Shown piece by piece: positions 3,258 to 20,157 of a DNA stretch of 24,000 bases. Under the pieces are notes generated by a model that was not told the origin of the DNA, ran no database searches, and saw only the letters and a program-made list of their open reading frames with translations. The stretch is from Nitrososphaerota archaeon (GTDB lineage Archaea > Thermoproteota > Nitrososphaeria_A > Caldarchaeales > Wolframiiraptoraceae). Numbering within the stretch: the first letter of the stretch is position 1; every line of letters begins with the position of its first letter. The translations under genes and the position numbers were made by a program. The stretch is from the NCBI GenBank assembly GCA_021163925.1, contig JAGGTD010000006.1, positions 1-24,000 of the forward strand, given 5' to 3'.

Positions 3258-3284
3258 CCGATGAAGAGATCGGGCTTTATGAGG

Positions 3285-3359
3285 TGGGCCCGGTGGGATT
3301 CGAACCCACGACCTCCCGGTTATCAGCCGGACGCTCCAACCAGGCTGAGCTACGGGCCC
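3285..3359 (-). tRNA. tRNA-Ile (anticodon GAT)
   Basis: The reverse complement folds as GGGCCCG-TA-GCTC-AGCCTGGTTG-GAGC-G-TCCGG-CTGATAA-CCGGG-AGGTC-GTGGG-TTCGAAT-CCCAC-CGGGCCC-A (75 nt). No encoded CCA. TATA-like AAAATATATAAG ~30 nt upstream (3386-3397, minus sense). Confidence 0.93.
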
Positions 3360-3466
3360 TATTGAACCATCTCAACTCGGGGTCTTATATATTTTGACGG
3401 CTTTAGGCTCTTCCTTCCCCCCACGAACTCGGCTCTGCTCAAGCGATATTTCAGCCAATTTTAACC

Positions 3467-4543: not shown

Positions 4544-4641
4544 AGTACTTAGTTAATCCGGTAACGCTAATATATGGAGTTGGGTCCGAGCGTAAAGTCC
4601 TTATATAGGAGCCATAATCTGATCAGTGGAGAAAGAAGGGC
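4544..4641. promoter_or_regulatory. Divergent promoter region (radical SAM gene leftward, GDPD gene rightward)
   Basis: Two A/T-rich TATA-like boxes: TAATATAT (4568-4575), ~28-37 nt from the leftward starts, and TTATATA (4601-4607), ~38 nt from the ATG at 4642. Confidence 0.5.
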
Positions 4642-5358
4642 ATGCTCGTGATAGGGCATAGGGGTGCTCCCGCCCTAGCTCCTGAAAACACTATCCCATC
4701 ATTTATGAGGGCAATCGAACTCGGTGTGGACTATATCGAGTTTGATGTCCGAGCTTCTAAGGATGGCAGGCTCGTCATAATGCATGACAATACGGTTAAC
4801 AGGACTACGAGCGCCGGTGGACTTGTATCGAGCTATAGCTTGACGCTGTTAAGGAAGCTCGATGCCGGTGGATGGTTTGGGGAGGAGTTCAAGAATGTTA
4901 GGATACCGACTGTTGAAGAGGTTTTGAGGCTTGCGAAGGGTAAGACAGCGGTGGCAATACACATCAAACAGGAGGGGATTGAGGATGAGGTGTTGAATAT
5001 GGTGAGGGAATTTAAAATGATCCATGACTGCATGATCCTAGCCCCGCTCACCATATCTAGGAAGGTTAAGCTATCCGAGCCCAGAATCCCTATTCAAGCA
5101 GATCTACCCGAGATAAATCCGAGAGATGCGATAGATATGTTGGCTGAAAACCTAGTCGATATAGCATCGATACACATCAAGAAGCTAAGTAAAGGGCTCG
5201 TCAGGCTATGCCATAGGAGCGGTCTACTCGTGAATGTCTGGGATGTTGATAAACCTGAACAGGTTAAGGAATGTGAGGAGTCCGATGTCGATTTTATAAC
5301 GACGAATGATCCGAAGACCGTTTTAGAAACCCTACGAAATTTGCTTGTAAGAAACTGA
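4642..5358 (+). CDS. Glycerophosphodiester phosphodiesterase (GDPD/UgpQ-like), cytosolic
   Basis: The N-terminus starts directly with the GDPD catalytic block VIGHRGAPALAPENTIPSF..GVDYIEFDVRASKDGRLVIMHDNTVNRTT. No signal peptide or TM segment. 238 aa. Confidence 0.9.
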   Translation: MLVIGHRGAPALAPENTIPSFMRAIELGVDYIEFDVRASKDGRLVIMHDNTVNRTTSAGGLVSSYSLTLLRKLDAGGWFGEEFKNVRIPTVEEVLRLAKGKTAVAIHIKQEGIEDEVLNMVREFKMIHDCMILAPLTISRKVKLSEPRIPIQADLPEINPRDAIDMLAENLVDIASIHIKKLSKGLVRLCHRSGLLVNVWDVDKPEQVKECEESDVDFITTNDPKTVLETLRNLLVRN

Positions 5359-5498
5359 AAGCCCGATCCACGACGTTAAAAACCAGTAAAGCGGATAATC
5401 GACGCAAACCTCTAACATACACTATGCAATCGGAATCTGATGAAATTAACCTCTCTTTATCAAATTTATCAAACCTTAACATCAGGCCTCAAAGAATG

Positions 5499-5557
5499 CT
5501 TATATATGTCTCAATAGACCTTTATAGATCTTGTCAAACAAGACTTATATATATCCG
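5499..5557 (+). promoter_or_regulatory. Promoter region of the ABC-importer operon: duplicated TATA-like 9-mer flanking a small palindrome
   Basis: CTTATATAT occurs at 5499-5507 and again at 5544-5552. CTTGTcaaACAAG (5530-5542) lies between the two copies. The second box is ~24 nt upstream of the ATG at 5573 (leaderless-type spacing). Confidence 0.5.
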
Positions 5558-7168
5558 GAGTCGTCTATAGGTATGGCTCCTCAGGAAAAAAAGAAGAACT
5601 TAAAACAAAATATTTTGGAGAGTGAAAAGATCTCTAGGAGGGAGGCCCTCTCAACCGCCGGAAAGGTCGCTATAAGCGCCGTAGTCGCTGGAGTAGTCGC
5701 GGGAGTTGGTGGATATCTCGCGGGTAGCGCCGCAGTTCCCCCACCTAAGACCGTCACCGTAACTGCTGCTGGTAAGACCGTTACAGTTCCGGGTAAAACC
5801 GTTACAACCACCGTAACTGGTCCAGCTCCTCCAGCGAAAACCGTTACTTCCACGGTAACTAGTACGGTGGCTCCGGCCGCCGCGGCCATCCCGATCAGGA
5901 TCTGGCCTGGTGCTAAAGGCTATGACAAGTATAGGCTGGATAATCCGAAGGATGTCTGCGCTATCTTGAATAATATGTTGGCCTCGATGGGCGCCAACGT
6001 TAAGATCGACTTCTCGGGAGTGGTCGAGTCGGCGAAGCTGGAGAAGGTCATCGCTGCTTATAAGGCGAAGGAGCTTCCAGAGATCCTTGGAGCTGGACAT
6101 GAATGGGTGGGCCCATTCGCTGAGGGAGGATATATCATACCGATCGACGACTACATTGAGAAATATAAGCTCCTTCTAACCGACTGGTTCCCATATGCGT
6201 GGGCTTGGGAGGCGATGAGATGGAAGGGTAAGACCTATGCGGTCCTACAGGACACTGAGTGTAGGCCGCTCTACTGGAGAAGAGATGTCTTGAAGAAGCT
6301 TGGATGGAGCGACGCCGACCTAGACGCCCTCCCAGAGAAGATTAGGAAGGGCGAGTGGACGATGGAGGACGCTATCTCGGTCGCGAAGGAGGCTATGGAC
6401 AAGGGGCTGGTTAAGTGGGGATTCTATCATAGGCCGACCCCAGGCGCTCAGCCCATGTTCGTCTTCTACGTCCAGTATGGTGGGAAGATCGGAGACCCAG
6501 ATACCGGCAAGCTCATCGCCGACAAGGATGCTTGGCTAAAGACTCTAGAACTCTTCTACAAGCTCGCGGTCGAGGAGAAGGTCATGCCCGCGATGGCCGG
6601 CACATCTTGGAGGACCGTCCACACAGACTTCGTTAACGGCAGGGTTCTCTTCTGGTTTGGCGGAAGCTGGCATTGGGCTGAGTATCAGCACGTAGCCTAT
6701 CACGAGGAGCTTGGAAAGGTTCCAGAGGAGTGGGAGTGGGAGAACCTCGGATTCGGCCTAGTCCCAGCTCCAACAAAGGGCCTAAAGCCGGCGACGAACA
6801 CCCATCCATGGGCGTTCATGATATCATCGCAGGCCAAGAACCCTGAGGTGGCGTTCCTGGTAGCTGTCTTACAGACCATGCCGACATTCGATGTGAGGCA
6901 CTGCATCTATGGAGGCAAGCTACCGTCTAGGGCTACGACATACAGCCATCCAGAATTCAAGAAGAACAAGTTCCTATCCTCAATAGTCTACATGCATGAG
7001 TATACAAGCGTCTTGTTCAACCATCCAAAGATGCCAGTATACACTAGACTAGCCTTTGATACCGTGACATCGGTGGAGAAGGGTGAGAAGAAGCCCGATA
7101 AGGCCGTTGAGGATCTAATGAGCGCTCTAAGAGCAGAGATTGGAGAGGAGATCGTAATCAAGGAATAA
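5531..7168 (+). CDS. ABC-transporter extracellular solute-binding protein (CUT1/family-1 type), membrane-anchored
   Basis: First gene of an SBP-permease-permease-ATPase operon. The likely true start is ATG 5573 (MAPQEKKK). It has a twin-arginine-like ISRREAL motif followed by a hydrophobic helix (residues ~45-67), then a Thr/Val/Pro linker and a ~420-aa Trp/Tyr-rich globular domain. Confidence 0.8.
   Translation: MSNKTYIYPESSIGMAPQEKKKNLKQNILESEKISRREALSTAGKVAISAVVAGVVAGVGGYLAGSAAVPPPKTVTVTAAGKTVTVPGKTVTTTVTGPAPPAKTVTSTVTSTVAPAAAAIPIRIWPGAKGYDKYRLDNPKDVCAILNNMLASMGANVKIDFSGVVESAKLEKVIAAYKAKELPEILGAGHEWVGPFAEGGYIIPIDDYIEKYKLLLTDWFPYAWAWEAMRWKGKTYAVLQDTECRPLYWRRDVLKKLGWSDADLDALPEKIRKGEWTMEDAISVAKEAMDKGLVKWGFYHRPTPGAQPMFVFYVQYGGKIGDPDTGKLIADKDAWLKTLELFYKLAVEEKVMPAMAGTSWRTVHTDFVNGRVLFWFGGSWHWAEYQHVAYHEELGKVPEEWEWENLGFGLVPAPTKGLKPATNTHPWAFMISSQAKNPEVAFLVAVLQTMPTFDVRHCIYGGKLPSRATTYSHPEFKKNKFLSSIVYMHEYTSVLFNHPKMPVYTRLAFDTVTSVEKGEKKPDKAVEDLMSALRAEIGEEIVIKE
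5747..5869 (+). repeat. In-frame low-complexity tandem repeat encoding the (K)TVT-rich linker of the SBP
   Basis: The DNA unit AARACCGTYAC recurs. The protein reads KTVTVTAAGKTVTVPGKTVTTTVTGPAPPAKTVTSTVTSTV. The mirror-image minus-strand ORFs 5581..5889 and 5651..6100 are artefacts of this repeat. Confidence 0.8.
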
Positions 7169-7203
7169 GGCTTATATTTCCCTCTTTTTATTTAAAAGAT
7201 AGT

Positions 7204-8211
7204 ATGTCAAAAAAGTTTTCAAATCTCTTAAGGGGTTATGTGGCGAAACCTAAAGTCTCGATCAGCACGGGTGCCTTGGGAGGTCTTAAGAGCTTTCTAA
7301 AGGAGAAGAGTAGGACGTTCTTCGTTATAGCCTTCCTCACACCCTTCTTGGCCGCGTTGACGATCATGTATGGGTTGCCATGCGCTCTATCAGTCTTGAT
7401 GTCTTTCACCGACATGGGATTAAGCTTCGAGCTACACTTTCTAAACCCACTTCTCAAAAATTACTACACAATATTCCATGTAGCCGATCCTAGGGTGCCG
7501 GTCGTGGCCCAGACAACAATCCTATACGTTGGATGCACGTTATTAATTAATGCCGGATTTTCGTTGGTGCTTGGAGTTCTAACAGCATATTGCATTAGAA
7601 ACGAGAATGTGGCGTCAGTGTTAAGACTTCTATGGTTCCTACCTAGGATGACGCCGGTGATAATCTATGCTCTATTATGGCTCTGGTTCACCGACCCAAC
7701 TTATGGGCCATTATCGATAGTCTCAAGCTGGATAGGACTTAAGGGGGTTAGATGGCTTCTCGACAAACCCTACTCACAGCTAGTGATGATAGCCGTGAAC
7801 GGATACATTGGCGCAAGCTGGGGAATGGTCATCTACGTCTCATCGATAAAGACCATTCCACTGGAGATAATTTATGCAGCGAAGGCGGATGGAGCGACGG
7901 ATTGGGATGTAATAAGGAGGATAATACTACCTCTATTGAAGTGGCCGATCCTATTTGTAACATCATGGCAAACCCTCTCTCTGATCGGATCATATACTGA
8001 GATCCTAGCTATATGGGATGGCTACAGCTATACATCAGGAGTCGAGGTCTGGTCCCTCTTCACATATCACACAGCATTCGAGGGATATAGATTTGGATAC
8101 TCGGCGGCCTTAGCCATAGTCATGGCGACGGTCGCGTTGATCTTGGTCGCGATATACTTCAAGGTCTTCGGATTCAAGCGTATGCTCGAACCATCTAGAA
8201 TAGAGGTGTAG
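7204..8211 (+). CDS. ABC sugar-type transporter permease (MalF/UgpA-like)
   Basis: Polytopic 335-aa ORF with an EAA-loop motif AAKADGATDWDVIRRIILPLL. Located in the operon between the SBP and the second permease. Confidence 0.88.
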   Translation: MSKKFSNLLRGYVAKPKVSISTGALGGLKSFLKEKSRTFFVIAFLTPFLAALTIMYGLPCALSVLMSFTDMGLSFELHFLNPLLKNYYTIFHVADPRVPVVAQTTILYVGCTLLINAGFSLVLGVLTAYCIRNENVASVLRLLWFLPRMTPVIIYALLWLWFTDPTYGPLSIVSSWIGLKGVRWLLDKPYSQLVMIAVNGYIGASWGMVIYVSSIKTIPLEIIYAAKADGATDWDVIRRIILPLLKWPILFVTSWQTLSLIGSYTEILAIWDGYSYTSGVEVWSLFTYHTAFEGYRFGYSAALAIVMATVALILVAIYFKVFGFKRMLEPSRIEV

Positions 8212-8215
8212 AGCC

Positions 8216-9112
8216 ATGATAACGGCTGAAGGTTATAGGAAACTCATTTGGAAGGCGAAGATCAAGTGGCTCATCGGAAACATCATAGTCTACTCGATCG
8301 TCTGCATCCCACTGGTGCCTATAATCCTGATGTACGGGTGGCTAATAGCTCAAGCCTTCAGCGGAGTATGCATCTCAAGCCTAATCCCACAGAAGTTAAC
8401 TCTAAAGAACTTCTATTTCCTAACGGGTCCAATCTATTGGGGTGGAACGCCGCTCTATAAGAGCTATTGGCCGCTGGTCCGAAATACCTTGCTCCTCGCA
8501 TTGGGAACGACGGGGCTGGTGGTTGCGATAACCTCACTCGCAGGTTACGCGATATCGAGGTTCGAATTTAAGGGTAGAGACCCACTATTGAAGAGCGTTG
8601 TTGTCGTGCACTCGATTCCGGGAGTCCTATTCCTAATAGCCTTGATGTATATATTAAACACCATAGGACTCTATGGCAAAGGATTCTTAACCCTATTGAG
8701 CGTGATAATAATCAAGGCTGGATTAGAATCCCCGATGTATACTTGGATGCTTAAGGGTTTCTTCGACTCAGTCCCATGGGAGCTTGAGTGGGCGGCTTTA
8801 GTGGACGGGTGTAGCAGGTTCACCGCGTGGAGAAAAGTTGTGATGCCTCTCATCTTTCCAGGGATAGCCGCCGTGAGCATCTTCGCATTCCTATCAGGTT
8901 GGGGAGAGTATCTTCTAGTCCTAACTTACATCACCGATAGGAAGTGGTATACATTGTCGCTTGCCCTAAGTGAGCTGACCTATCAGTTCAAGCACGTCGA
9001 TTATGGAATGCTGGCCGCGTTCTCCCTCCTATACCTCCTGCCAGCGATGATATTCTTCCTGCTCACCCAGAAATACTTGATGACCATGAGGATAGTAGCG
9101 TACAAGGGATGA
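8216..9112 (+). CDS. ABC sugar-type transporter permease (MalG/UgpE-like)
   Basis: Polytopic 298-aa ORF with an EAA-loop motif EWAALVDGCSRFTAWRKVVMPLIFPG. GAGGTG motif 8 nt upstream. Starts 4 nt after the preceding stop. Confidence 0.88.
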   Translation: MITAEGYRKLIWKAKIKWLIGNIIVYSIVCIPLVPIILMYGWLIAQAFSGVCISSLIPQKLTLKNFYFLTGPIYWGGTPLYKSYWPLVRNTLLLALGTTGLVVAITSLAGYAISRFEFKGRDPLLKSVVVVHSIPGVLFLIALMYILNTIGLYGKGFLTLLSVIIIKAGLESPMYTWMLKGFFDSVPWELEWAALVDGCSRFTAWRKVVMPLIFPGIAAVSIFAFLSGWGEYLLVLTYITDRKWYTLSLALSELTYQFKHVDYGMLAAFSLLYLLPAMIFFLLTQKYLMTMRIVAYKG

Positions 9113-9202
9113 GCATTCAACTCATAAAAGAATCTTTCAAAAGATTTTATCCCAAAAAGCTTATATACACTATGGTGAAATGTTAATCTAAGGGGGTAAA
9201 TC

Positions 9203-10327
9203 TTGGTTAAGGTTAAGCTTGAACATCTAACGAAACGTTTCGGCAAAGTTGTGGCGGTTAACGACCTAAACCTTGAGATCAAGGATGGGGAGTTCATGGC
9301 CCTGCTAGGCCCATCTGGATGCGGTAAGACCACGACCATGCTGATGATAGCCGGAATCTATAAGCCCACAAAGGGGCACGTATACTTTAATGATGTGTGC
9401 GTTGACGATCTACCCCCAAAGGATAGGAATGTTGGAATGGTCTTCCAGAGCTATGCCCTCTACCCCCATATGAAAGTCTTCGACAACATAGCATTTCCCC
9501 TGAAATTGAAGAAGCTTCCAAAGGATGAGATTAGGGAGAAGGTTAAGAAGGTCGCAGACTTCCTAGAGATAGGTCATCTATTAGATAGAAAGCCAGCGCA
9601 ACTATCTGGAGGCCAGATGCAGAGGGTTGCCTTGGCTAGGGCCTTGGTCAAGGAGCCTGACATATTCTTGATGGATGAGCCTTTGAGCAACCTAGATGCT
9701 AAGCTAAGGGTTGTGATGAGGGCTGAGATTAAGAGGCTTCAGAAGAGGCTCGGGATCACGACCATCTACGTCACCCACGACCAAGTCGAGGCCATGACCA
9801 TGGCTGATAGAATCGCTGTATTGAGGGAGGGGGTTTTACAGCAATGCGCTGTGCCGGATGAACTCTACCTCAAACCCAGAAACATGTTTGTCGGAGGCTT
9901 CATCGGAAGCCCGCCCATGAACTTCCTAGACTGTTCACTGGTCGAGGAGAACCATGAACACTATCTAGATCTCGGCGTGTTCAAGCTATGGATACCACCG
10001 GATATAGCGGATTTAATCATGAAGAATGCCTCTGGATCTGAGCTCGTGCTCGGGATTAGACCTGAAGACTTGAAGGTCACCCTAACCCTACCTCCGGAGG
10101 CGAAGGAGGCTGGACAGAAGTCGAAGGTCCAGGCGATCAGATCCGAGATCTATGTTCTAGAGCCGCTTGGAAAGGACGTGATAATAAACACAAAGCTTGG
10201 GGACACACTTGTGAAGGTAGTCGCCCCTCCAACGATCAGGCCATCGGTGGGAGAGACTATATGGCTGAACTTCGACCTAGATAAGATGCATGTCTTCGAT
10301 AAGAAGACTGAGCTCGCGGTAGTCTAG
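9203..10327 (+). CDS. ABC transporter ATP-binding protein (MalK/UgpC-like, with C-terminal regulatory/TOBE-like domain)
   Basis: Walker A GPSGCGKTT, Q-loop MVFQSYALYP, signature LSGGQMQRVALARAL, Walker B IFLMDEPLSNLD, H-loop YVTHD. 374 aa. Confidence 0.93.
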   Translation: MVKVKLEHLTKRFGKVVAVNDLNLEIKDGEFMALLGPSGCGKTTTMLMIAGIYKPTKGHVYFNDVCVDDLPPKDRNVGMVFQSYALYPHMKVFDNIAFPLKLKKLPKDEIREKVKKVADFLEIGHLLDRKPAQLSGGQMQRVALARALVKEPDIFLMDEPLSNLDAKLRVVMRAEIKRLQKRLGITTIYVTHDQVEAMTMADRIAVLREGVLQQCAVPDELYLKPRNMFVGGFIGSPPMNFLDCSLVEENHEHYLDLGVFKLWIPPDIADLIMKNASGSELVLGIRPEDLKVTLTLPPEAKEAGQKSKVQAIRSEIYVLEPLGKDVIINTKLGDTLVKVVAPPTIRPSVGETIWLNFDLDKMHVFDKKTELAVV

Positions 10328-10393
10328 CATCAATCACCCAAGCATCTTTACCTCCAAAATACATATTTTAATAAGCCGTCGAAACTAGAGAAT

Positions 10394-11380
10394 ATGAGCG
10401 GGCAGATAAATTTCGGACTCATTGGGGCTGGGAGGATAGGTGCCTTCCATGCGAGAAACATAAAGCAATATACGGATGCCAAGATCTACGCCGTAGCCGA
10501 CGTGGTTAGGGAGGCGGCTGACAGGCTTGCGAGGGAGGTTGGAGCCGAGAAAACATACTACTCACCCGAGGATCTGATCAAGGATGAGCGCGTCGATGCG
10601 ATCGTCATCTGCCTCCCAAATAATCTACATTATCAGGTCTCGATGATGGCCATCGAAGCCGGGAAGCATGTCTTCTGCGAGAAGCCGCTATGCCTCAAGT
10701 CGAGTGAGGCGGAGGACTTGGTGAGGAGGGTTAGGAAGGCTGGAGTGAAGTTTCAGGTCGGATACAATAGAAGATTCGATAAATCCTATGAGAATGTGAA
10801 GAAGCTCATCGAAGATGGGGATCTGGGAAGACTTGTGCTGGCATACTCCAATACATTCGACCCAGAGCCTCATAGTGGCTGGGAGGCGAATGAGAAGCTC
10901 AGCGGAGGCATCTTATTTACAACATGTAGCCACGACTTCGACATGCTCTACTGGCTGATAGGATCTAGGGTGAGGAGAGTTTACACAGAGTCTAGGGGCG
11001 CGTTTGGGAGAGATCAATATCTTATGAGTCTCCTATCTTTCGAGAATGATGTTCTAGGAGTCGTGAGCGTCTTCGAAGCATGTCCATATGGCCATGACGT
11101 TAAGACGGAGATAATAGGGGATAAGGCCTCCATCAGGATAGAGATGCCCGCGGCAACTTACTTCAAGAAATTTGATAAGAATGGGGTCCACACGGACTAC
11201 CCATATTGGTTCCTAGATAGGTTCGGCCACTCATACATTAAGGAGATCCAGGATTTCGTGCGCTGCATTAAGGAGGATAAGGAGCCGAGGGTGACGGTCG
11301 AGGATGGAGCACATGTTGTGAAGATCTGCGAGGCCGCGAGGGAGTCTCTGCTGAAGAGGATGCCCATAGATATCGGATGA
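10394..11380 (+). CDS. iolG: Gfo/Idh/MocA-family NAD(P) oxidoreductase (IolG-like myo-inositol 2-dehydrogenase candidate)
   Basis: N-terminal Rossmann motif INFGLIGAGRIGAFHA, the EKPL motif (FCEKPLCL), and GYNRRFD. 328 aa. The specific assignment rests on context with IolM/IolN/IolO-like genes. Confidence 0.75.
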   Translation: MSGQINFGLIGAGRIGAFHARNIKQYTDAKIYAVADVVREAADRLAREVGAEKTYYSPEDLIKDERVDAIVICLPNNLHYQVSMMAIEAGKHVFCEKPLCLKSSEAEDLVRRVRKAGVKFQVGYNRRFDKSYENVKKLIEDGDLGRLVLAYSNTFDPEPHSGWEANEKLSGGILFTTCSHDFDMLYWLIGSRVRRVYTESRGAFGRDQYLMSLLSFENDVLGVVSVFEACPYGHDVKTEIIGDKASIRIEMPAATYFKKFDKNGVHTDYPYWFLDRFGHSYIKEIQDFVRCIKEDKEPRVTVEDGAHVVKICEAARESLLKRMPIDIG

Positions 11381-11491
11381 GCTCGGCGAATCCTCAAGAG
11401 ATCGCATCAACTGCTTTATCGATAAAAGGGAGGGTGAGCCCGGCCCTTCGGCCATCAAATTAACCTTAAATTATGCAAGCACAAGCTATCC

Positions 11492-12703
11492 ATGATGCCT
11501 ATGGAGAAGGATATGCTTGCAGCGGTCTTACATGCAAAATGGGATCCGAGGCCGGAGTATAAGCCCACGCCGAGAGACATTGAAGGAAGATTAACCTACC
11601 TCGGATCGATGGTTTGGAGATATCCCGAGCTCAAGCTTGAGCGTAAGCCGATTCCGAGGATTAGGGATGATGAGGTCCTGATAAGGGTTAGGGCATGCGG
11701 GATCTGCGGATCCGACATACACATGTATGAGAAGGATGAGGATGGATACATCCTATATCCTGGATTGACGGCCTTCCCAGTGGTAATAGGCCACGAATTT
11801 TCCGGGGAGATAGTTGAGGTCGGGGACAAGGCATACGACGCCAAGGGTAAGAAGTTTGAGGTTGGAGAGCCCGTCTGCGCTGAGGAGATGATTTGGTGCG
11901 GATATTGTCGAGCATGTAGGGACGGCTATCCAAACCATTGCGTAAACCTCCAAGAACTCGGATTCACCATAGATGGAGCACATGCGGAATATGTTAAGGT
12001 GACTGCGAGACACTGCTGGTCGATAAGGGAGATAATCGATAGACTTGGGGAGGAGAAGGGGTTTGAGGCTGGAGCATTGGTCGAGCCCACATCGGTAGCC
12101 TATAACGCGATATTTGAGAGGGCTGGAGGATTTAGGCCGGGAGCCTATGTCGTCGTCTTTGGAGCAGGGCCGATAGGATTGGCTGCGACGGCGTTGGCTA
12201 AGGCGGCTGGGGCGGCGAAGGTGATAGTCTCAGAGATCTATGATAAGAGGCTTGAACTTGCTAAGCTCGTCGGCGCCGATGAGCTGATAAATCCGACAAG
12301 GCTTAACGAGCCTGTCGAGAACAAGATCTTGGAGCTCACGGACGGAGAGGGCGCGGACATGTATGTGGAGGCCGCCGGAGCCTTTAACAAGACTTGGCCA
12401 ACAATTGAGAGATGTATCTGGGAAGGCAGTAAGATTAACGCTAAGGTCGCGGCGATAGGTAGGGCTGCTGGACACGTTCCGATCTGGTTTGAGGTTCTTC
12501 AGGTTAGGAGGGCTCAGGTATTCGGATCTCAGGGGCATTCTGGGCATGGGATATTCCCATCAGTCATAAGGTTGATGGCGTCAGAGAGAATAGATATGAC
12601 GAGGATGATCACCGCCAGATTCCCGCTGGAGAAGGCGGTAGATGCGTTCAAGCTGATAAGTGAGCATAGGGACGAGCACGCGAAGATCCTTATAAAGCCA
12701 TAA
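11492..12703 (+). CDS. iolM: Zn-dependent medium-chain dehydrogenase, long form (IolM-like scyllo-inosose 3-dehydrogenase candidate)
   Basis: GICGSDIHMY and GHEFSGEIVEVG (catalytic Zn), CGYCRACRDGYPNHC (structural Zn), Rossmann motif VVFGAGPIGLAA. 403 aa with a ~60-aa N-terminal extension. The specific function is inferred from context. Confidence 0.7.
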   Translation: MMPMEKDMLAAVLHAKWDPRPEYKPTPRDIEGRLTYLGSMVWRYPELKLERKPIPRIRDDEVLIRVRACGICGSDIHMYEKDEDGYILYPGLTAFPVVIGHEFSGEIVEVGDKAYDAKGKKFEVGEPVCAEEMIWCGYCRACRDGYPNHCVNLQELGFTIDGAHAEYVKVTARHCWSIREIIDRLGEEKGFEAGALVEPTSVAYNAIFERAGGFRPGAYVVVFGAGPIGLAATALAKAAGAAKVIVSEIYDKRLELAKLVGADELINPTRLNEPVENKILELTDGEGADMYVEAAGAFNKTWPTIERCIWEGSKINAKVAAIGRAAGHVPIWFEVLQVRRAQVFGSQGHSGHGIFPSVIRLMASERIDMTRMITARFPLEKAVDAFKLISEHRDEHAKILIKP

Positions 12704-12788
12704 CACATCCTTCAATTTTTGACGCTTATGGCCTTCATCTCGATCTTTCGAAAATATTAATTAACTCGACCTAGGGAGTATATGTGAG

Positions 12789-13925
12789 GTGATCTACTTG
12801 TCCGAGGTTAAGAGAGTTGTTGATAAGACCGGGAAAGCTTGGTTCGTCACCGAACATCCAGCGATCTTCTTCGAGGACAACACGGTTGGGAGATTGAAGA
12901 AGGAGATCTGGGAGGCATCCGATGAGGAGATAGATAGAATCTTGGAGGAGTATGGCATACCGTCACCGCCCGAACTCGGAAAGCCCGGAACCTATATCCA
13001 AACGACCCCGAGGCATAAGGTGATCGAGAATAGGAGGAAGAACGATATAGTGTTCATCCCCGTTGGAAGCACCGAGGTCCATGGGATGCACTCAGTCTCA
13101 GGCCACGACACACTTCAGGTCACTCAGATAATCGAGGCTGTGAGGAGATACACGGAGAGGAAGGGGAGGCCTGTAAACCTCGTCTGGCCGATAGTCTATG
13201 GAAGCCATCCATATCACCATATCGGAATCCCCGGAAACATAATCTTGCCCGAGACCGTTCTCAGGGAGACCCTGATAGCCGTGATGCTCGGATTATGGAA
13301 TGATGGATTCAGGAAGCAGATAATAATCAGCAACCACGGCCATCAATGGGTCTTAAAATCAGCCCTACATGAATTCATGTACCGCTACCAGCTACCGGGA
13401 ATCTATCAGATCCTCGACTGGCATAGAGCCGTGAGGGAATTCTTCATCCCAACCGGTAGGAAGGATAGTTTTGAGACGAACTTCATCCACGCCGCTGAAG
13501 CCGAGACCTCCCTAGGCCTACTACTATTCCCGAAGGAGATGATAGACATGAGCTACGCGAAGGATGCTTTCGGAAAATCGTATCTCCCAGAGGGACACTT
13601 CGACCTATCAGTCGAGCCGTATAGGAGGCCGCATAGATGGTCTGAGGGCGAGGGGCATATGGCGATAGAGCTTAAGGCGACTCCCATAGGTAATGTTGGG
13701 AGACCGACGCTCGCGAAGGCTGAGAAGGCTAAGAGACCTGTCGCCGCGATCCTAAGATACCTGACCTTACTGATAGATCAGATCCTAGAGGCGTTTCCGC
13801 CTGGAAAGGTTCCGCCGGTTGAGGAGGTAACCCTGAGAACTAGGGAGGAGATGGAGCCATATCTTAAAGAGCCTGGAAGTGAGGGCTGGAAATCCGTGTA
13901 CTCCCTGCCGATATACAGGATCTAA
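12789..13925 (+). CDS. iolN: Creatininase-superfamily metal hydrolase, long form (IolN-like 3-dehydro-scyllo-inosose hydrolase candidate)
   Basis: Family blocks VFIPVGSTEVHGMH, ISNHGHQW and HAAEAETS. 378 aa against ~260 aa for classical creatininase. The possible real start is TTG 12798, 5-6 nt after GAGGTGA. The stop overlaps the stop of the convergent gene by 4 nt. Confidence 0.65.
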   Translation: MIYLSEVKRVVDKTGKAWFVTEHPAIFFEDNTVGRLKKEIWEASDEEIDRILEEYGIPSPPELGKPGTYIQTTPRHKVIENRRKNDIVFIPVGSTEVHGMHSVSGHDTLQVTQIIEAVRRYTERKGRPVNLVWPIVYGSHPYHHIGIPGNIILPETVLRETLIAVMLGLWNDGFRKQIIISNHGHQWVLKSALHEFMYRYQLPGIYQILDWHRAVREFFIPTGRKDSFETNFIHAAEAETSLGLLLFPKEMIDMSYAKDAFGKSYLPEGHFDLSVEPYRRPHRWSEGEGHMAIELKATPIGNVGRPTLAKAEKAKRPVAAILRYLTLLIDQILEAFPPGKVPPVEEVTLRTREEMEPYLKEPGSEGWKSVYSLPIYRI

Positions 13926-14755
13926 ACCAACTTTTTTATTTGATTTATCGCCTGCCTCGCAGCGGAGAATTGGTCTGGGATTGGGAGTATCTCAAATGAT
14001 ATGGTTCCATCATATCCTATCTCCTTGAGCACGCCTACTATCTCCTTGAAATTTATATGGCCTGACCCAGGTGCCTGTCTATTGCTGTCAGAGAAGTGTA
14101 GATATGCGAGGTGGTGTCTAGCTTTTCTAATGGCCTCTGGGATGCTTCTCTCCTCGATATTCATGTGAAAGGTGTCGGCTAAGAGCTTCAATGCCCCAGA
14201 CCCTATCTCCCTAATCAGCTTAACCCCCTCATCCAGCCTATTCACTATATTCGACTCATATCTATTCAGGGGTTCAAGCAAGATGTGTATCCCAGCCCTC
14301 TCAGCCTCCCTCGAACATCTCTCAAGACAACTCCTCAAATTATTCCAGCCATCTCGATATGATCCCTCAAACCTTCCCTTAACCGATCCTATGATTACAT
14401 CTGCTTCAAGTTCTTCCGCGAGCCTAATGTATCGAATTATCCTGTCGACGGCCTTCTCCCTAATCTCTGGACTTGGAGACGTGAAGCTTAAGCCGAACTT
14501 CGTATAGGTTAAGCCAGTCCCAATCGCGGTAACCCTTAGCCCATGTTTAGAGACCTTCTCCTTAACCTCTTTAAGCGGCATACTATAGGGATCCTCGACG
14601 AAGAGCTCCACGCCATCATAGCCTAGTTCATAAATCCTTGAGATGTTCTCATCGAAATCTCCGCCAAGTCCTAGAGGCTGAACATCTGTCTCCGGAGAAG
14701 CGATAACGATTGAAAACGTGAAACTCATTACCTCAGCCTCGAAGAGTGCTCGCAA
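13922..14755 (-). CDS. iolO: Xylose-isomerase-like TIM-barrel protein (IolO-like 5-keto-L-gluconate epimerase candidate)
   Basis: Barrel metal-site blocks ILLEPLNRYES, LLADTFHMNIEE, LHFSDSNRQAPGSGHINF and ISFEILP. The C-terminal half closely resembles my recollection of T. maritima TM0416. The likely true start is ATG 14728 (MSFTFSIVIAS), ~30 nt from a TTTAAATTT box. Confidence 0.65.
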   Translation of the reverse strand: MRALFEAEVMSFTFSIVIASPETDVQPLGLGGDFDENISRIYELGYDGVELFVEDPYSMPLKEVKEKVSKHGLRVTAIGTGLTYTKFGLSFTSPSPEIREKAVDRIIRYIRLAEELEADVIIGSVKGRFEGSYRDGWNNLRSCLERCSREAERAGIHILLEPLNRYESNIVNRLDEGVKLIREIGSGALKLLADTFHMNIEERSIPEAIRKARHHLAYLHFSDSNRQAPGSGHINFKEIVGVLKEIGYDGTISFEILPIPDQFSAARQAINQIKKLV

Positions 14756-14811
14756 AATTTAAACATGAGGTTCAAATATACTTAAATACAGCTTGAATAG
14801 CCGATAGTCTG
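14756..14811. promoter_or_regulatory. Divergent promoter region (IolO-like gene leftward; TAL-like/UxaE operon rightward)
   Basis: A/T-rich 56-nt spacer AAATTTAAACATGAGGTTCAAATATACTTAAATACAG, with TATA-like boxes placed 25-35 nt from ATG 14728 (minus) and ATG 14812 (plus). Confidence 0.55.
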
Positions 14812-16941
14812 ATGGAGTTCAAGGAGATTATCTTCAAATCTAGGCCAGCTGAGCTCCCATCGCCTCCAAGAAGTTTAGATCACGCCGATCACGTGGTCTC
14901 GGTTGGATTGGCTGGCCACACGAAGCTTGCCGCCGATCATCTCCTAAATAGGGAGATGGTTGGAAACCTCGTCAATGCGATTAGAGATATCCTCCGGAGA
15001 TTCAACCTGATCTTCAGGGCGAGCGTCGGAACAGGTGAGAAAGCGGTTCTAAACCGCTCAAGAATCTATGAGACCGTGGCTCAGCTCGCATTAAACCTAA
15101 TCGGCGTTGAGAAGAAGTGGATAGGCTTCTCAGAGGATGAGGTGGAGACCTCGTTGACGAAGATCTTGAACGCTATTAGAGAGTGGGAGGAGGTCGAGAG
15201 AAATGAATTTGGAGATCACCCAATATCGAAGGCGACGGTTGAAAAGATCTTATCTGAGCTGAAGAAGGTGATGTCAGGATACTATAGACCACCGGGATCT
15301 ATGTGTTCTAAGATGGCTCAGGAGATCGAGGAAAAGATGAATTGGGATAACCCGGTGTCGAGCTTCATCAACGTCGCCAAGGAGGTGATTCAAAACAATA
15401 TCTACTATAGGATGAGCATGGATGGATACTGTAAGTTCGGAAACGATTACGCGCTAGGGCTTAGATGGGTTAGGCATCTAGGATATGTTCAGGTCTCAAC
15501 GAATCCGACTCTCGCCGCGGTGGCATATGATGACGATCCAACCCTCTGGGATGGATTCATGGATGAGAGCTTCTGCCAAGACCTTAAGACCGTTGTGATG
15601 AAGTATCCGGAGTGGATTAAAAACCCGGAGAAGTATGCGGATGAGCTCGCGATGAAGGCCACGGAGCTCTCAATCTTCCCCAACCTAGCGGTCTTTAGGC
15701 CTATCGCGATCGCATCGGACTTCTATCATGGCCTCGTCAGCCTCCAATTAAATCCATATGTCACGAAGAACGTTGAGAATAGCGTCAAGCAGGCCATGCA
15801 GATCTACATGGATGCCGAGGAGTTTCTGAAGAGATATGATGAATACCTGCTCTGGGGATATTCGAATCAGGTTTGGAGGGGTAGGCCGAACATAGTCTTC
15901 AAGGTTACCGGGGACAGCCCCGCGGCAATAGACATAACGTCCATCTTGGAGAGCATGGGGATCGGGACAAACAACACGGTTACGTTTACAGTTGCTCAAG
16001 AAACAACCCTGATCCTAGCGAAGATCGAGGGTAGGGCTAAAGCAGTCAAGCTCGGAATTCTCCCTACGATGTGCTATGAGACCACGATGGGCGGGAGATT
16101 AGATGATCACATAAGGGAGGTTCAGGCCGAAGCCTTGCTCAAGAGAGCCGTAGAGAGAGCTGGAGAGGGATGCATCAAAGAGCTTGCGGAGAAGCTAGGC
16201 GCATGGGATAAGATCAAGGATCTACCCACAGAGGAGAAGATCAGGGTTGTTTGTAGTAGGAGGTACTTGAGACCCATGAATAAGAGGCCATTTGCGGAAG
16301 TGTTGGCGAAGGCCGGCGTCGTTGAGGGCGGGGTAGATGAGGCTCAGAAATACCTAGATAGACTTGAACATGACGTAGGCCACGCCGGGATAGAGGTTAC
16401 CCACAGGGTCTACAAGATATTCTTCAGCCCGGAGAACAAGCCCAAGTGGATCAAGTACATTATGTCGAAGTATGGTTTGAGCGAGGATGAGGCGAGAGAG
16501 GTATTGGATAGAATAGATGTCCTACCCGCCTCGAAGAGGAAGCCCATAGACACGCTCCTAACCCTAGCCTGGATGAATATGACGAACACGGAGTTCCCAA
16601 ACCATCAGACAAACGTCTTAATGTTCAGTAGGAGGCCGGACTTCAGGATGGAGGATTATAGAGACTCCGTCTTAAAGGAGATAGATCAGTCGATAATCCA
16701 TAGATTGACCGAGGAGTATCAAGATATAAGGGAAGATTGTAGAGCTGCTCTTGAGCTGAATCCAGAGCTCATAGAGAGGTTGAGGGAGGCCGGAGTAGAA
16801 GTAAACTTTGGGACTAGGGGTCACCTGCCCAAGGATTGGCCTCAATTCGGATCCGTCGTTAAGACCATGGACGAGTTCACGAGATCCTACACGAGGTTCA
16901 GGGAGAGGGTAGTGGAGTTTGTCAAGAAGCTGTCAAGCTGA
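14812..16941 (+). CDS. Transaldolase/fructose-6-phosphate-aldolase (TAL/FSA) family protein of unusual size (709 aa) with unassigned N- and C-terminal regions
   Basis: Core residues ~205-440 carry VSTNP (229-232), VSLQLNP (Gln312 at the TalB Glu96 / FSA Gln59 position), FKVT (Lys364, Schiff-base Lys position), GIGTNNTVTFTVAQ (matching GINCNLTLLFSFAQ) and TMGGRLDD (matching SPFVGRILD). I do not recognise the flanking ~200 and ~270 aa. Confidence 0.7.
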   Translation: MEFKEIIFKSRPAELPSPPRSLDHADHVVSVGLAGHTKLAADHLLNREMVGNLVNAIRDILRRFNLIFRASVGTGEKAVLNRSRIYETVAQLALNLIGVEKKWIGFSEDEVETSLTKILNAIREWEEVERNEFGDHPISKATVEKILSELKKVMSGYYRPPGSMCSKMAQEIEEKMNWDNPVSSFINVAKEVIQNNIYYRMSMDGYCKFGNDYALGLRWVRHLGYVQVSTNPTLAAVAYDDDPTLWDGFMDESFCQDLKTVVMKYPEWIKNPEKYADELAMKATELSIFPNLAVFRPIAIASDFYHGLVSLQLNPYVTKNVENSVKQAMQIYMDAEEFLKRYDEYLLWGYSNQVWRGRPNIVFKVTGDSPAAIDITSILESMGIGTNNTVTFTVAQETTLILAKIEGRAKAVKLGILPTMCYETTMGGRLDDHIREVQAEALLKRAVERAGEGCIKELAEKLGAWDKIKDLPTEEKIRVVCSRRYLRPMNKRPFAEVLAKAGVVEGGVDEAQKYLDRLEHDVGHAGIEVTHRVYKIFFSPENKPKWIKYIMSKYGLSEDEAREVLDRIDVLPASKRKPIDTLLTLAWMNMTNTEFPNHQTNVLMFSRRPDFRMEDYRDSVLKEIDQSIIHRLTEEYQDIREDCRAALELNPELIERLREAGVEVNFGTRGHLPKDWPQFGSVVKTMDEFTRSYTRFRERVVEFVKKLSS

Positions 16942-18472
16942 TGAACTCGTCGAGAAACTTGAAGAACATTTGAGAAGCAGGGGCAGAGAGATAAAGGTAT
17001 ATCGGCGGTCAATCACCACCCAATCCGGCACAGTATCACTTCTAATTAGAGAAGGATTGGATAAGAAGTTCGTGATGATATATCGTGAGGAGAGCGACCT
17101 CGTCGAGAGCTTCAAGGCTGAAGAGGAGGGTGAGCTCGACGGATACAGGTATAGAATCTGCCCATGCAATCATGAAAACGCGCTAGCCCTGAGAAGATAC
17201 TTCCCATACACGAGGCCGAGCCGGCTAGCGAAGGGATCGACGATAGGGATGGGGGATAGGATAGGCGTCGCGACCCCCGGCCACATAAGAGCTGCAAGAG
17301 AGTTTAGGATCTTTCCGGCCCTAGCACAGCAATCGATCAGAGAGATGGGGAGGACGGGGAGATCTCCTGAAGAGGTCTTGGACGATGTTTCTTGGGCGGT
17401 CTTCCAAGAAGGCTACCGAGATGGATTCGCGGCCGACGCAGACCACCTAAAGACCCTAGAGGATATCGATAGAACCTTCAAAGCTGGATTCACGATGTAT
17501 ACGTTAGATCCATCCGACTATGTAGACGATCTAGCCGGCACCTATGATCTCAAAACCTTGAGGGAGAAGTTTGATGGGCTTCCATGGAAAGAGCTTGGAT
17601 GTGACCCAAGAAGTTGCCTGAATAGATATGTCGGTCCAAGATTCAGGCTGAGATCCTCTGAGGGGGAGGTCGATATAACCTTCTCCGAGGAGGTGTTGAT
17701 GAGATCCGCTGTCAAATACTCCAAGGCCATCGCCCACATCTTAAAGATGTATAATCGATTAGTCGAGCTATTCGATGGAAAACGCTTCGACCTAGAAATA
17801 TCGGTCGATGAAACCGCAAGCCCCACAACGCCTCAAGAACACTTCTTCATAGCATCGGAGCTTAAGAGGCTGGGAGTTAGATTTGATGGGCTGGCTCTAA
17901 GATTTGTCGGCGCATTTGAGAAGGCGGTTGATTACCGCGGAGATCTAAAGATGTTTGAGGAGACCTTTAAGACCCATGTAATTATCGCGAAGAGCCTCGG
18001 CCCATATAAGCTGAGCATACATTCTGGAAGCGACAAGTTCTCAATCTATCCAATCATCGGGAAGTGGGCTAAGGGGATGTTCCACCTAAAGACCGCAGGC
18101 ACATCATATCTCGAAGCGCTTAGAGTCGTTGCGAGACATGACCCAAGATTATTCAGGGAGATAATAGATTATTCGATGAAGTGCTTTGAAAGGGATAAGG
18201 CGACATATATGATCAGCACGAAGATCGAGTCGATTCCAGATCATAGAATGTGTCGTGATGAGGAACTGGAGGACGTATTTCTGAATAGGGATGAAGGAAG
18301 GCAGCTACTCCACGTAACCTATGGATCGATCCTAACGGCGAGGGATTCTAATGGGAGATGGATATTCAGGGATAAGATCAGGAAAATTCTGCTCGAGAAT
18401 GAGGAAGAATATTATCAGCTCCTCCAAAATCATTTCAGAAAACATTTAACGGCATTAGGTCTAAAAGGGTGA
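16919..18472 (+). CDS. uxaE: UxaE-family tagaturonate/fructuronate (ketohexuronate C4) epimerase
   Basis: Long colinear resemblance to remembered Thermotoga UxaE: CNHENALALRRYFP, GMGDRIGVATPGHIRA, FPALAQQSIRE..RTGRS, VLDDVSWAVFQEGYRDGFAADADHLK, FTMYTLDPSD, SIHSGSDKFSIYP, KTAGTSYLEAL, LLHVTYGS. The TTG start overlaps the upstream stop by 23 nt; an alternative TTG lies at 16970. Confidence 0.85.
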   Translation: MSRSCQADELVEKLEEHLRSRGREIKVYRRSITTQSGTVSLLIREGLDKKFVMIYREESDLVESFKAEEEGELDGYRYRICPCNHENALALRRYFPYTRPSRLAKGSTIGMGDRIGVATPGHIRAAREFRIFPALAQQSIREMGRTGRSPEEVLDDVSWAVFQEGYRDGFAADADHLKTLEDIDRTFKAGFTMYTLDPSDYVDDLAGTYDLKTLREKFDGLPWKELGCDPRSCLNRYVGPRFRLRSSEGEVDITFSEEVLMRSAVKYSKAIAHILKMYNRLVELFDGKRFDLEISVDETASPTTPQEHFFIASELKRLGVRFDGLALRFVGAFEKAVDYRGDLKMFEETFKTHVIIAKSLGPYKLSIHSGSDKFSIYPIIGKWAKGMFHLKTAGTSYLEALRVVARHDPRLFREIIDYSMKCFERDKATYMISTKIESIPDHRMCRDEELEDVFLNRDEGRQLLHVTYGSILTARDSNGRWIFRDKIRKILLENEEEYYQLLQNHFRKHLTALGLKG

Positions 18473-19593: not shown

Positions 19594-19606
19594 CTCCGCA
19601 GATGAG
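19585..19606. terminator. Inverted repeat between convergent genes (candidate bidirectional terminator)
   Basis: CTCATCTG-actccg-CAGATGAG forms an 8-bp stem spanning the gyaR-like stop. It is followed by a T-rich stretch (cctcgatttt) and lies in the 29-nt gap before the convergent gene's stop at 19623. Confidence 0.45.
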
Positions 19607-19622
19607 CCTCTATCCTCGATTT

Positions 19623-20069: not shown

Positions 20070-20157
20070 CGGCTCTCATTTCCCGATTTTACCTCAAGAT
20101 GAATTCATTAAAACTTTTTAGGACGGCGAACAGATAAAATTCGAGGTGTGATAAAGA

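Follow-up and report, generated by a model that had tools for sequence, protein, structure and literature searches.

A candidate archaeal gene island for the catabolism of inositol derivatives, with an uncharacterised transaldolase-fold protein in its proposed lower branch

Inositol catabolism in archaea is essentially undescribed: no such account appears in the literature that we searched, and searches for archaeal IolM or IolN and for inositol use by Bathyarchaeia gave no relevant report. Here we analyse a gene island at positions 4642-21075 of a 24-kb stretch of DNA (the window; contig JAGGTD010000006.1) and compare it with the described systems that come closest. In E. coli, UgpBAEC-UgpQ is a system for the uptake and hydrolysis of glycerophosphodiesters, and in Bacillus the isomerase IolB, the kinase IolC and the aldolase IolJ lead to dihydroxyacetone phosphate and malonate semialdehyde. 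For the inositol pathway of Thermotoga maritima, the intermediates and the TM0411-0416 operon have been described (PMC5931981), as have the inositol and hexuronate regulons (PMC3750489), and the gcl-hyi-TSAR-GK II cluster of Pseudomonas is known as a module of the glycerate pathway (PMC2063504). The five enzyme families of the T. maritima pathway, IolG (TM0414), IolM (TM0412), IolN (TM0413), IolO (TM0416) and UxaE (TM0440) (Rodionova et al. 2013, 2012, as cited in PMC3750489 and PMC5931981), are clustered in the window with an importer, a GDPD-family phosphodiesterase and an uncharacterised transaldolase-fold protein that we call TALL. We propose, with about as much confidence as doubt, that the island degrades an inositol derivative by means of a front end, an upper pathway and a new lower branch.

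Gene calls were taken from a list of open reading frames (ORFs) and the proteins of the window were then scanned with Pfam and NCBIfam, which gave the following features (aa, amino acids; cut-offs are those of the NCBIfam models).

4642-5358, plus strand: GDPD-family phosphodiesterase, 238 aa, cytosolic (PF03009, 142.6 bits)
5531-7168, plus strand: CUT1 solute-binding protein, SBP (Pfam SBP_bac_1, 70.6 bits)
7204-8211, plus strand: ABC permease 1, MalF/GlcT-like (BPD_transp_1; weak NCBIfam GlcT/MalF matches)
8216-9112, plus strand: ABC permease 2, MalG/UgpE-like (BPD_transp_1; MalG 105 bits, UgpE 41 bits)
9203-10327, plus strand: ABC ATPase of the MalK/UgpC/GlcV type (ABC_tran, OB_MalK, TOBE_2; UgpC subfamily 415 bits, cut-off 432)
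10394-11380, plus strand: IolG-like inositol 2-dehydrogenase, Gfo/Idh/MocA family (TIGR04380, 286 bits, cut-off 355)
11492-12703, plus strand: IolM, scyllo-inosose 3-dehydrogenase, Zn-ADH family, 403 aa (NF041097, 545.7 bits, cut-off 450)
12789-13925, plus strand: IolN, 3-dehydro-scyllo-inosose hydrolase, creatininase superfamily (NF041098, 302 bits, cut-off 245)
13922-14755, minus strand: IolO-like 5-keto-L-gluconate epimerase, AP_endonuc_2 TIM barrel (NF041099, 270.6 bits, cut-off 300)
14812-16941, plus strand: TALL, uncharacterised transaldolase-fold protein, 709 aa (Pfam TAL_FSA, 29.8 bits)
16919-18472, plus strand: UxaE, tagaturonate/fructuronate epimerase (PF16257, 567 bits)
18469-19593, plus strand: D-2-hydroxyacid dehydrogenase (2HADH) of the glyoxylate/hydroxypyruvate reductase (GRHPR) type (NF009714, 488 bits, cut-off 455)
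19623-20069, minus strand: cyclophilin-like protein, CypL (PF04126, 118.8 bits)
20158-21075, plus strand: TIM2, second AP_endonuc_2 TIM barrel (Pfam, 75.7 bits)

The IolO gene is thus convergent with IolN and divergent from the TALL gene, which occupies the 2.1 kb separating IolO from UxaE and overlaps the latter by 23 nt. A previous sequence-only reading of this DNA had listed the GDPD, the importer, the IolG/M/N/O-like proteins and UxaE, all of which were recovered at the same positions by the ORF list, Pfam and NCBIfam. Its description of these genes as consecutive needs correction, as TALL, which it omitted, intervenes between IolO and UxaE. Its boundaries of 4642-18472 were also too narrow: on the ORF list, Pfam matches and the gene content of relatives, the island continues to 21075, with 2HADH, CypL and TIM2 co-conserved in those relatives.

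In the scheme that we propose, a Tat-type, membrane-anchored CUT1 SBP and its ABC importer would take up an inositol phosphodiester, for example glycerophosphoinositol or a related thermophile solute, and the cytosolic GDPD would split the diester into free inositol plus a glycerol phosphate or an inositol phosphate. IolG would convert myo-inositol to scyllo-inosose, IolM would take this to diketo-inositol, IolN would open the ring to give 5-keto-L-gluconate, and successive epimerisations by IolO and UxaE would yield D-tagaturonate and D-fructuronate. In the lower branch, K364 of TALL would form a Schiff base with the keto group of D-fructuronate and the enzyme would break the C3-C4 bond, so that a dihydroxyacetone unit would be released or transferred (a possible acceptor being glyceraldehyde 3-phosphate, giving fructose 6-phosphate) and tartronate semialdehyde would be left. 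Isomerisation by TIM2 would turn tartronate semialdehyde into hydroxypyruvate, from which 2HADH would form D-glycerate by reduction, and a glycerate 2-kinase would direct D-glycerate into glycolysis. The retention of UxaE would be explained by the D-threo configuration of fructuronate at C3 and C4, which TAL/FSA enzymes require.

That the upper pathway runs from inositol to D-fructuronate is, in our view, highly probable, the families being assigned by sequence and the chemistry by analogy with T. maritima. IolM and IolN exceed the equivalog cut-offs of their NCBIfam models, the next-best model being Tdh at 197 bits for IolM and the creatininase model scoring 40 bits for IolN. IolO and IolG find their best NCBIfam models in NF041099 and TIGR04380, in both cases just under the cut-off. 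The top match of IolO in the PDB is TM0416 of T. maritima (2zvr, 193 bits; runner-up 101 bits) and that of IolG is 3ezy (200 bits), which we take to be TM0414, followed by named inositol dehydrogenases. UxaE matches the solved tagaturonate/fructuronate epimerases 9lhw and 6il9 with 440 and 376 bits, respectively. Two other identities were ruled out: threonine dehydrogenase for IolM (197 against 546 bits) and, on score, a creatininase or ArfB-type hydrolase for IolN (40 against 302 bits). The family assignments of the sequence-only reading thus stand outright for IolM, IolN and UxaE and as best but sub-threshold matches for IolO and IolG, and the Iol-like proteins do not fall into families with other substrates, a danger which that reading had raised. 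IolN bears an N-terminal extension of about 65 aa; its relatives in other loci score 239-520 bits on NF041098, and its metagenomic relatives number at least 584.

The expectation that this gene set would be co-conserved in archaeal relatives was borne out. Complete sets of IolM, IolN, IolO and UxaE occur in L001 (a 69% relative), L060, L073, L079 and L082 (L-numbers denote the genomic loci of relatives used for comparison), which represent different archaeal orders and have shuffled gene orders. The IolM and IolN proteins of these loci match the equivalog models, IolN of L082 falling just short of the cut-off (239 against 245 bits). Because the same gene set recurs in rearranged form in these five loci, its arrangement is not due to chance.

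Compared with T. maritima, the host here is archaeal, the importer is of the CUT1 type and accompanied by a GDPD, and the window has neither a ROK-type IolR nor a TM0415-type PfkB, although PfkB is present in the relatives L001, L059 and L062. Beyond UxaE, the island offers TALL, a GRHPR-type dehydrogenase, a TIM barrel and CypL; Pfam and NCBIfam detected no UxaD/UxuB, UxuA, KdgK/KdgA or GntE/GntK/Gnd in the 24-kb window, and the earlier description of the set as complete cannot be maintained. This difference may simply mean that a Thermotoga-type pathway ends at D-fructuronate, that the standard enzymes (UxuB/UxuA/KdgK/KdgA or UxaD/GntE/GntK/Gnd) are encoded elsewhere, and that TALL, 2HADH, CypL and TIM2 are unrelated neighbours. 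Such an arrangement would suit the solid assignments of the upper pathway and the 24-kb extent of the window, from which downstream genes may be distant, and it has a parallel in T. maritima, where the iol operon and the uxaE/uxu/kdg genes also lie at separate loci (PMC3750489). We nevertheless judge it improbable, because the TALL gene is placed between IolO and UxaE with an overlap into the latter, because TALL, UxaE, 2HADH, CypL and TIM2 stay together across orders despite their shuffled order, and because clusters of the bacterial type carry their downstream genes right after UxaE, where the window has TALL and 2HADH.

This last point derives from 80 metagenomic loci anchored on IolN, most of which contain the Iol/UxaE gene set. 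Their usual order is IolG-IolM-IolN-IolO-UxaE followed by genes for an SDR, a PFK-like kinase, a HAD protein, 6-phosphogluconate dehydrogenase (6PGD) and a LarA-like protein, and the bacterial-type loci among them lack TALL. The genes that follow UxaE correspond to those given for T. maritima as uxaD/gntE/gntK/gnd (PMC3750489). As the bacterial-type loci place their downstream genes immediately after UxaE, TALL, 2HADH and TIM2 occupy the position of known downstream enzymes. In the common and apparently bacterial clusters of L091, L095, L096, L108, L124 and L125, the genes downstream of UxaE encode an SDR of 268 aa, a PFK-family kinase of about 430-457 aa, a HAD protein, 6PGD and a LarA_N-like protein. 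The bacterial-type route looks like a conversion of fructuronate to mannonate, gluconate, 6-phosphogluconate and ribulose 5-phosphate, and it seems to employ the PFK-family kinase and not a classical gluconate kinase.

TALL exceeds the gathering score of Pfam TAL_FSA (27) by less than three bits and has no NCBIfam match. An AlphaFold2 model built from a 64-sequence alignment (pLDDT 95.4, pTM 0.93) retrieved transaldolases as all of its top 50 Foldseek matches in the PDB, at 11-15% identity and with target-normalised TM-scores of up to 0.73. Transaldolases and FSA enzymes are usually about 220-350 aa long; TALL has ~350 residues more than known transaldolases, and its additions include a helical domain (~200 aa) at the N terminus and an inserted helical region (~140 aa). 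In common with TalB and FSA (PF00923), it has a TIM-barrel fold and a Schiff-base lysine on the equivalent strand: the invariant K364 (NIVFKV) aligns by HMMER and hhalign with the corresponding lysine (IKI/IKL) of 3r5e and with TalB K132. The same alignments pair N387 and T389 with TalB N154 and T156 in a shared Asn/Thr motif (GTNNT vs GINCNLT), and the invariant Q312 lies at the position of TalB E96, where FSA also has Gln.

The remaining active-site residues were placed by strand order on the model, which would equate T424-x-M426-x-x-R429 with TalB S176/F178/R181 and let A573-S-K-R576 cover TalB S226/R228. R429 and the A-S-K-R stretch at 573-576 are invariant, providing putative equivalents of the Arg/Ser/Arg anion site, and M426 is invariant at the position of TalB Phe178 and FSA Tyr131. 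The model suggests that the anion-binding site has been kept. The residue mapping relied on the HMMER alignment to 3r5e, the fold search and strand order; hhalign gave a probability of only 24% between the TALL family and TalB, with strand 6 misplaced and with a TalB sequence entered by hand. TALL is set apart from TalB and FSA by its low identity, its length, the Met at the Phe178/Tyr131 position and its uronate and inositol gene partners. We propose for TALL the role of a class I aldolase or transaldolase that cleaves fructuronate.

The TALL family is small, mostly archaeal and uncharacterised, and canonical transaldolases match its profile only at E values of about 1e-9 to 1e-11. A word-indexed search gave 637 matches, a search of 1.84 billion representatives gave ~15 full-length representatives at 50% identity, and a scan of GTDB genomes gave 203 confirmed genomic copies, a few of them from bacterial metagenome-assembled genomes (MAGs). 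A TALL gene is also present in L006 (CAYYKQ010000107.1), a 5.4-kb contig labelled Anaerolineae bacterium, whose gene content is near-identical to that of L001: its MFS protein is 99% identical to that of L001 and its IolN and TALL are 68% and 69% identical to those of the window, as in L001. L006 probably belongs to an archaeon and was wrongly binned with a bacterial MAG, and the other bacterial-labelled TALL loci (Aerophobetes L057 and L063, Dehalococcoidales L067, Clostridia L083) may be true transfers or binning errors.

Another explanation of the fold, the Schiff-base lysine and the conserved anion (phosphate) site is that TALL is a housekeeping transaldolase of the non-oxidative pentose phosphate pathway (sedoheptulose 7-phosphate + glyceraldehyde 3-phosphate <-> erythrose 4-phosphate + fructose 6-phosphate) with extra domains, brought near the island by a general clustering of carbohydrate genes. 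A transketolase gene adjoins the cluster in L001/L002, and many TALL genes of Bathyarchaeia have a conserved housekeeping neighbourhood with RMMBL, DHH and prefoldin genes, which speaks for this explanation. It is harder to reconcile with an invariant Gln where TalB needs its catalytic Glu, with the remote similarity to known transaldolases and the ~350 extra residues, and with the gene partners: even in these neighbourhoods of Bathyarchaeia, TALL is usually followed within ~60 bp by KduI/IolB and sometimes by UxaE, and UxaE or KduI/IolB is associated with TALL in 29 of 81 loci. We therefore consider a housekeeping role quite improbable.

Partners within 10 kb of TALL were counted in 81 species-level loci. 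A gene of the 2-Hacid_dh family was found in 21, a UxaE-type gene in 18 (and in addition in L001), a KduI/IolB isomerase in 13 (at a median distance of 58 bp) and TIM2 in 12, with at least one of these four present in 43/81. The associations extend over Bathyarchaeia, Thermofilaceae, Thermoproteales, Desulfurococcales, Pyrodictiaceae, Ignisphaera and Nitrososphaerota, with differing gene orders, and TALL, 2HADH, CypL and TIM2 are kept together in L001/L002, L004, L005, L060, L082 and L099. The lower module is separable from the upper pathway, since Ignisphaera loci have the arrangement TIM2-UxaE-x-TALL-2HADH and no IolG/M/N.

The 2HADH gene probably begins at 18586, giving 335 aa, the length at which its counterpart in L004 was called. 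Its top PDB matches (390 bits) are the Pyrococcus GRHPR enzymes 5aov and 2dbq; the Pyrococcus GRHPR enzymes are hydroxypyruvate reductases with a preference for hydroxypyruvate (PMC4749974). CypL adjoins TIM2, 2HADH or TALL in L001, L045, L054, L060, L082, L099, L166, L168 and L171 and belongs to the lower module by co-conservation, although we propose no role for it. For TIM2, the sole NCBIfam match is IolO at 45 bits, and the Foldseek neighbours of its AlphaFold2 model (pLDDT 93.9) are ketose 3-epimerases and MJ1311. The hydroxypyruvate isomerase model TIGR03234 gave no match to TIM2 at E<=1e-5 and no Hyi structure was prominent among the Foldseek matches, so that our reading of TIM2 as a tartronate semialdehyde/hydroxypyruvate isomerase draws on gene context.

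This context resembles the glycerate module of Pseudomonas in joining a TIM-barrel protein of isomerase fold to a hydroxypyruvate-reducing dehydrogenase. L166 adds a glycerate 2-kinase of the MOFRL family (PMC2063504), in the order IolO-like <- TALL | TIM2 -> 2HADH -> CypL -> MOFRL glycerate 2-kinase. The resemblance has limits, as TIM2 is not an orthologue of Hyi, the reductase is a GRHPR-type D-2-hydroxyacid dehydrogenase and not a GarR-type tartronate semialdehyde reductase, and the tartronate semialdehyde would come from aldol cleavage of a keto-uronate and not from glyoxylate carboligation. Elsewhere, TIM2 and 2HADH travel with whichever aldolase is present: L167 has FGGY kinase-class II aldolase-TIM2-2HADH within a bacterial pectin/hexuronate locus, and L094 has IolGMNO-TIM2-2HADH-Cgl0159/LacD-like aldolase-PFK-like kinase, without UxaE and TALL. 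UxaE is present where the aldolase is of the TAL type, for which the fructose configuration is needed, and absent from L094, among the loci compared the one iol cluster that has a Cgl0159/LacD-like aldolase and a kinase.

With respect to Bacillus, the proposed cleavage would be analogous to that by the IolB-IolC-IolJ series in that an aldolase splits a C6 keto-acid into a C3 ketose unit and a C3 acid semialdehyde, and KduI/IolB-family genes adjoin TALL in the 13 loci mentioned above. Unlike Bacillus, the window has no IolE dehydratase, IolD hydrolase, kinase or class II aldolase, and tartronate semialdehyde, the C3 acid proposed here, is hydroxylated.

The lower branch through TALL, TIM2 and 2HADH thus builds on an observed fold, a conserved lysine and anion site, gene linkage and a reductase family, to which we add an inferred substrate for TALL and an inferred role for TIM2; taken as a whole, it is a tentative proposal that we hold to be less probable than not. 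Several observations weigh against it. TALL has neither the catalytic Glu of TalB nor Tyr131 of FSA, having Q312 and M426 instead, so another substrate is possible; the anion site would suit phosphate as well as carboxylate, and a sugar phosphate such as fructose 6-phosphate or sedoheptulose 7-phosphate is a possible substrate. All four partners are missing from within 10 kb of TALL in 38/81 loci, and in many Bathyarchaeia the gene has a housekeeping neighbourhood. A transketolase gene accompanies TALL in L001/L002; in L168, which has no TALL, one lies close to TIM2. Among 168 loci searched, L166 is the only one with a glycerate kinase near TALL. UxuAB and KdgKA could be encoded elsewhere in the genome, the analysis covering the 24-kb window, and TIM2, whose nearest folds are ketose 3-epimerases, may be another hexuronate epimerase. 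More broadly, the TALL family could be a new class I aldolase or transaldolase cleaving D-fructuronate derived either from inositol (IolGMNO-UxaE) or from hexuronates (KduI/IolB-type), with a dihydroxyacetone unit and tartronate semialdehyde as products and with a TIM-barrel isomerase, a hydroxypyruvate reductase and a glycerate 2-kinase leading the latter into glycolysis. It would form a lower pathway independent of sugar-acid kinases, widespread in Thermoproteota (Bathyarchaeia, Thermofilaceae, Desulfurococcales, Ignisphaera, Nitrososphaerota) and fed in the present lineage by the import and GDPD cleavage of inositol phosphodiesters such as glycerophosphoinositol or di-myo-inositol phosphate; this generalisation we regard as speculative and, on balance, rather unlikely.

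For the front end, we propose that an inositol phosphodiester is imported and then cleaved by the GDPD, a prediction from sequence and gene linkage to which we give slightly less than even credence. The GDPD has visible HRG, ENT, E-x-D and HD motifs, a full-length PF03009 match and no signal peptide; its top solved relative is 2pz0 (124 bits). The SBP has an N-terminal twin-arginine-like motif (SRREAL), a membrane anchor and a linker rich in Thr, Val and Pro, and its true start is probably Met15 (position 5573). Its homologues form an archaea-only clade of ~80 clusters, in which P0390 (531 aa) is the recorded form. The parallel with E. coli Ugp lies in the combination of a CUT1 importer that has a MalK/UgpC-type ATPase with a small cytosolic GDPD. 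It stops there, as the SBP is a membrane-anchored member of that archaeal clade and not an UgpB orthologue, the GDPD scores 116 bits on the UgpQ equivalog model, far below the cut-off of 264, and the system is linked to carbon catabolism of the alcohol moiety and not to the Pho regulon.

The SBP found no NCBIfam match and no match to UgpB, and its PDB matches, all sugar-binding proteins, do not exceed 44 bits; lacking a close characterised relative, it does not reveal its substrate specificity by sequence, and searches of the PDB and NCBIfam with SBP and GDPD gave no information on specificity. The sequence does not tell apart the substrates named by the sequence-only reading (glycerophosphoinositol, di-myo-inositol phosphate or free inositol). 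The link that it drew between a phosphodiesterase and a CUT1 importer fared better, through recurrence in L001/L002, L053, L073, L059, L062, L141 and L171. In L001/L002, GDPD and SBP genes lie upstream of the iol genes; L053 has a canonical GDPD; and in L073, L059 and L062 the gene adjoining TALL is a divergent GDPD-like one, in most cases with a PfkB kinase as its partner. Locus L141, of the bacterial type, places three GDPD genes ahead of IolM/N/O, together with an ABC system, a PfkB kinase and a LacI regulator. In L171, an SBP orthologue belongs to an operon of the order SBP-permease-permease-ATPase-GDPD-Fe-ADH, close to which are genes for a TIM barrel and a cyclophilin-like protein. Importer and GDPD are thus linked in the window and L005, in L002 (GDPD-SBP) and in L171, and are not linked in L169, L170 and L172. 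Other archaeal iol clusters have a CUT2 importer and no canonical short GDPD, L062 with its divergent GDPD-like gene being one of them.

These mixed patterns leave room for an importer of free inositol, another cyclitol or a glycoside, with the GDPD engaged in unrelated scavenging of phospholipid head groups or glycerophosphodiesters for phosphate or glycerol. The SBP does resemble sugar-binding CUT1 proteins and not UgpB, its orthologues stand beside iol genes without a GDPD in L169 and L071, and the GDPD gene has a TATA-like promoter of its own and lies 173 nt away from the SBP gene. Yet GDPD-family genes are found in or next to iol or TALL clusters in at least six independent lineages, and in L171 the GDPD directly follows the orthologous ABC operon, such that we think this alternative plausible enough to keep in mind, though unlikely. 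Import of a phosphodiester, as we propose, must also be set against the lack of a characterised relative of the SBP, the SBP orthologues of L170 and L172 that have neither iol nor GDPD neighbours, and the fact that GDPD genes are common and could serve lipid head-group turnover. A hint in its favour comes from T. maritima, which does not grow on free inositol and whose IolR responds to neither inositol nor inositol phosphate (PMC3750489); free inositol is perhaps not the natural substrate of this type of pathway.

Some of these loci have further features of their own. In L171 (14999-16850), the Fe-ADH/Fe-ADH_2 gene after the GDPD is of the glycerol dehydrogenase or sn-glycerol-1-phosphate dehydrogenase type, which suggests that glycerol phosphate released by the GDPD, possibly as the archaeal sn-glycerol 1-phosphate stereoisomer, may be oxidised on the spot. 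In L169, a 69% SBP orthologue lies within 10 kb of IolG-, IolM-, IolN- and IolO-like genes, and a LAGLIDADG_3 gene (2607-3467) stands within this cluster, with the IolM-like gene on one side and the creatininase gene on the other. Loci of Desulfurococcales and Pyrodictiaceae encode, directly upstream of TALL, a PfkB kinase paired with a divergent GDPD-like protein (~311 aa) that matches only the C-terminal half of PF03009 (L059 7797-9787, L062 7819-9823, L071 7786-9765 and L073 2410-3150, the arrangement in L071 being deduced from ORF sizes only). An FBPase_3 (FBP aldolase/phosphatase) gene comes next in L059, and this GDPD-like/PfkB/FBPase_3 trio suggests a possible branch for phosphodiesters or inositol phosphates.

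The archaeal context that the sequence-only reading had perceived is confirmed. A 97%-identical locus, L005, comes from a MAG labelled 'uncultured Nitrososphaeria archaeon', cluster mates at 90% identity are labelled Thaumarchaeota or Nitrososphaerota archaeon, and the same proteins occur in ~30 metagenome assemblies; we read the host as a hydrothermal archaeon of this Nitrososphaerota/'Thaumarchaeota' label. An Rfam scan of the window found three tRNAs only and no riboswitch. One of these, a 94-nt gene at 21231-21324 (plus strand), was called 'tRNA-Stop (tta)' by ARAGORN and a normal tRNA by Rfam (58.5 bits); as its sequence reads ...GGGCT GTT AA followed by an insert of ~19 nt, it is most likely an intron-containing tRNA-Asn(GTT). 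Intron-containing tRNAs are an archaeal hallmark. TATA-like GCTTATATA boxes precede the genes for GDPD, SBP, permease 1 and the ATPase (spacers 4544-4641, 5359-5545, 7169-7203 and 9113-9202), so each of these importer genes may have its own archaeal promoter. The intergenic regions gave no convincing shared operator beyond these boxes and one weak word, AAATTAACCT, which occurs both between GDPD and SBP and between IolG and IolM. The window shows no evident regulator gene, but a 265-aa ORF just past the cluster (21418-22215, plus strand), whose only match is a sub-threshold one to the small-molecule-binding V4R domain (E 0.0034), could encode a ligand-sensing regulator.

Other genes flank the island. 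Immediately upstream of the GDPD gene, and divergent from it, is a gene whose product belongs to the TIGR04084 (AF0577) family of radical SAM/SPASM proteins (3467-4543, minus strand; 416 bits), for which no partner gene or precursor peptide was obvious nearby. A free-standing ORF resembling LAGLIDADG_3 homing endonucleases (65-670, minus strand; 42 bits) lies at the left edge of the window. Towards the other end, a DUF211 gene (102 bits) overlaps by 4 nt with the next gene, which encodes a VIT1/TIGR00267-family membrane protein; the two (22493-23343, plus strand) look like a conserved pair that is not related to the inositol locus.

Here we have described a gene island whose probable upper pathway is of the kind known from T. 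maritima and is new in its archaeal occurrence, and whose combination of a GDPD/CUT1 front end with a lower module of a TAL-like protein, a GRHPR-type dehydrogenase and a TIM barrel has no described counterpart in the literature that we searched, in which a fructuronate aldolase was likewise sought with no relevant result. Hot environments are rich in inositol phosphodiesters, including di-myo-inositol phosphate, glycerophosphoinositol and archaetidylinositol head groups. A dedicated route for scavenging them would matter ecologically for Thermoproteota of sediments and hydrothermal systems, including Bathyarchaeia, and may explain the failure of T. maritima to grow on free inositol although it has the pathway. 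If the proposed reaction is correct, cleavage of fructuronate would be a new form of sugar-acid degradation and a new type of reaction for TAL/FSA enzymes, of interest for biocatalysis, and would let inositol and uronic acids be degraded through a lower pathway without a sugar-acid kinase. Finally, the proposal offers a concrete and testable function for the uncharacterised TALL family and for its recurring partners, the TIM barrel, the GRHPR-type dehydrogenase and CypL.

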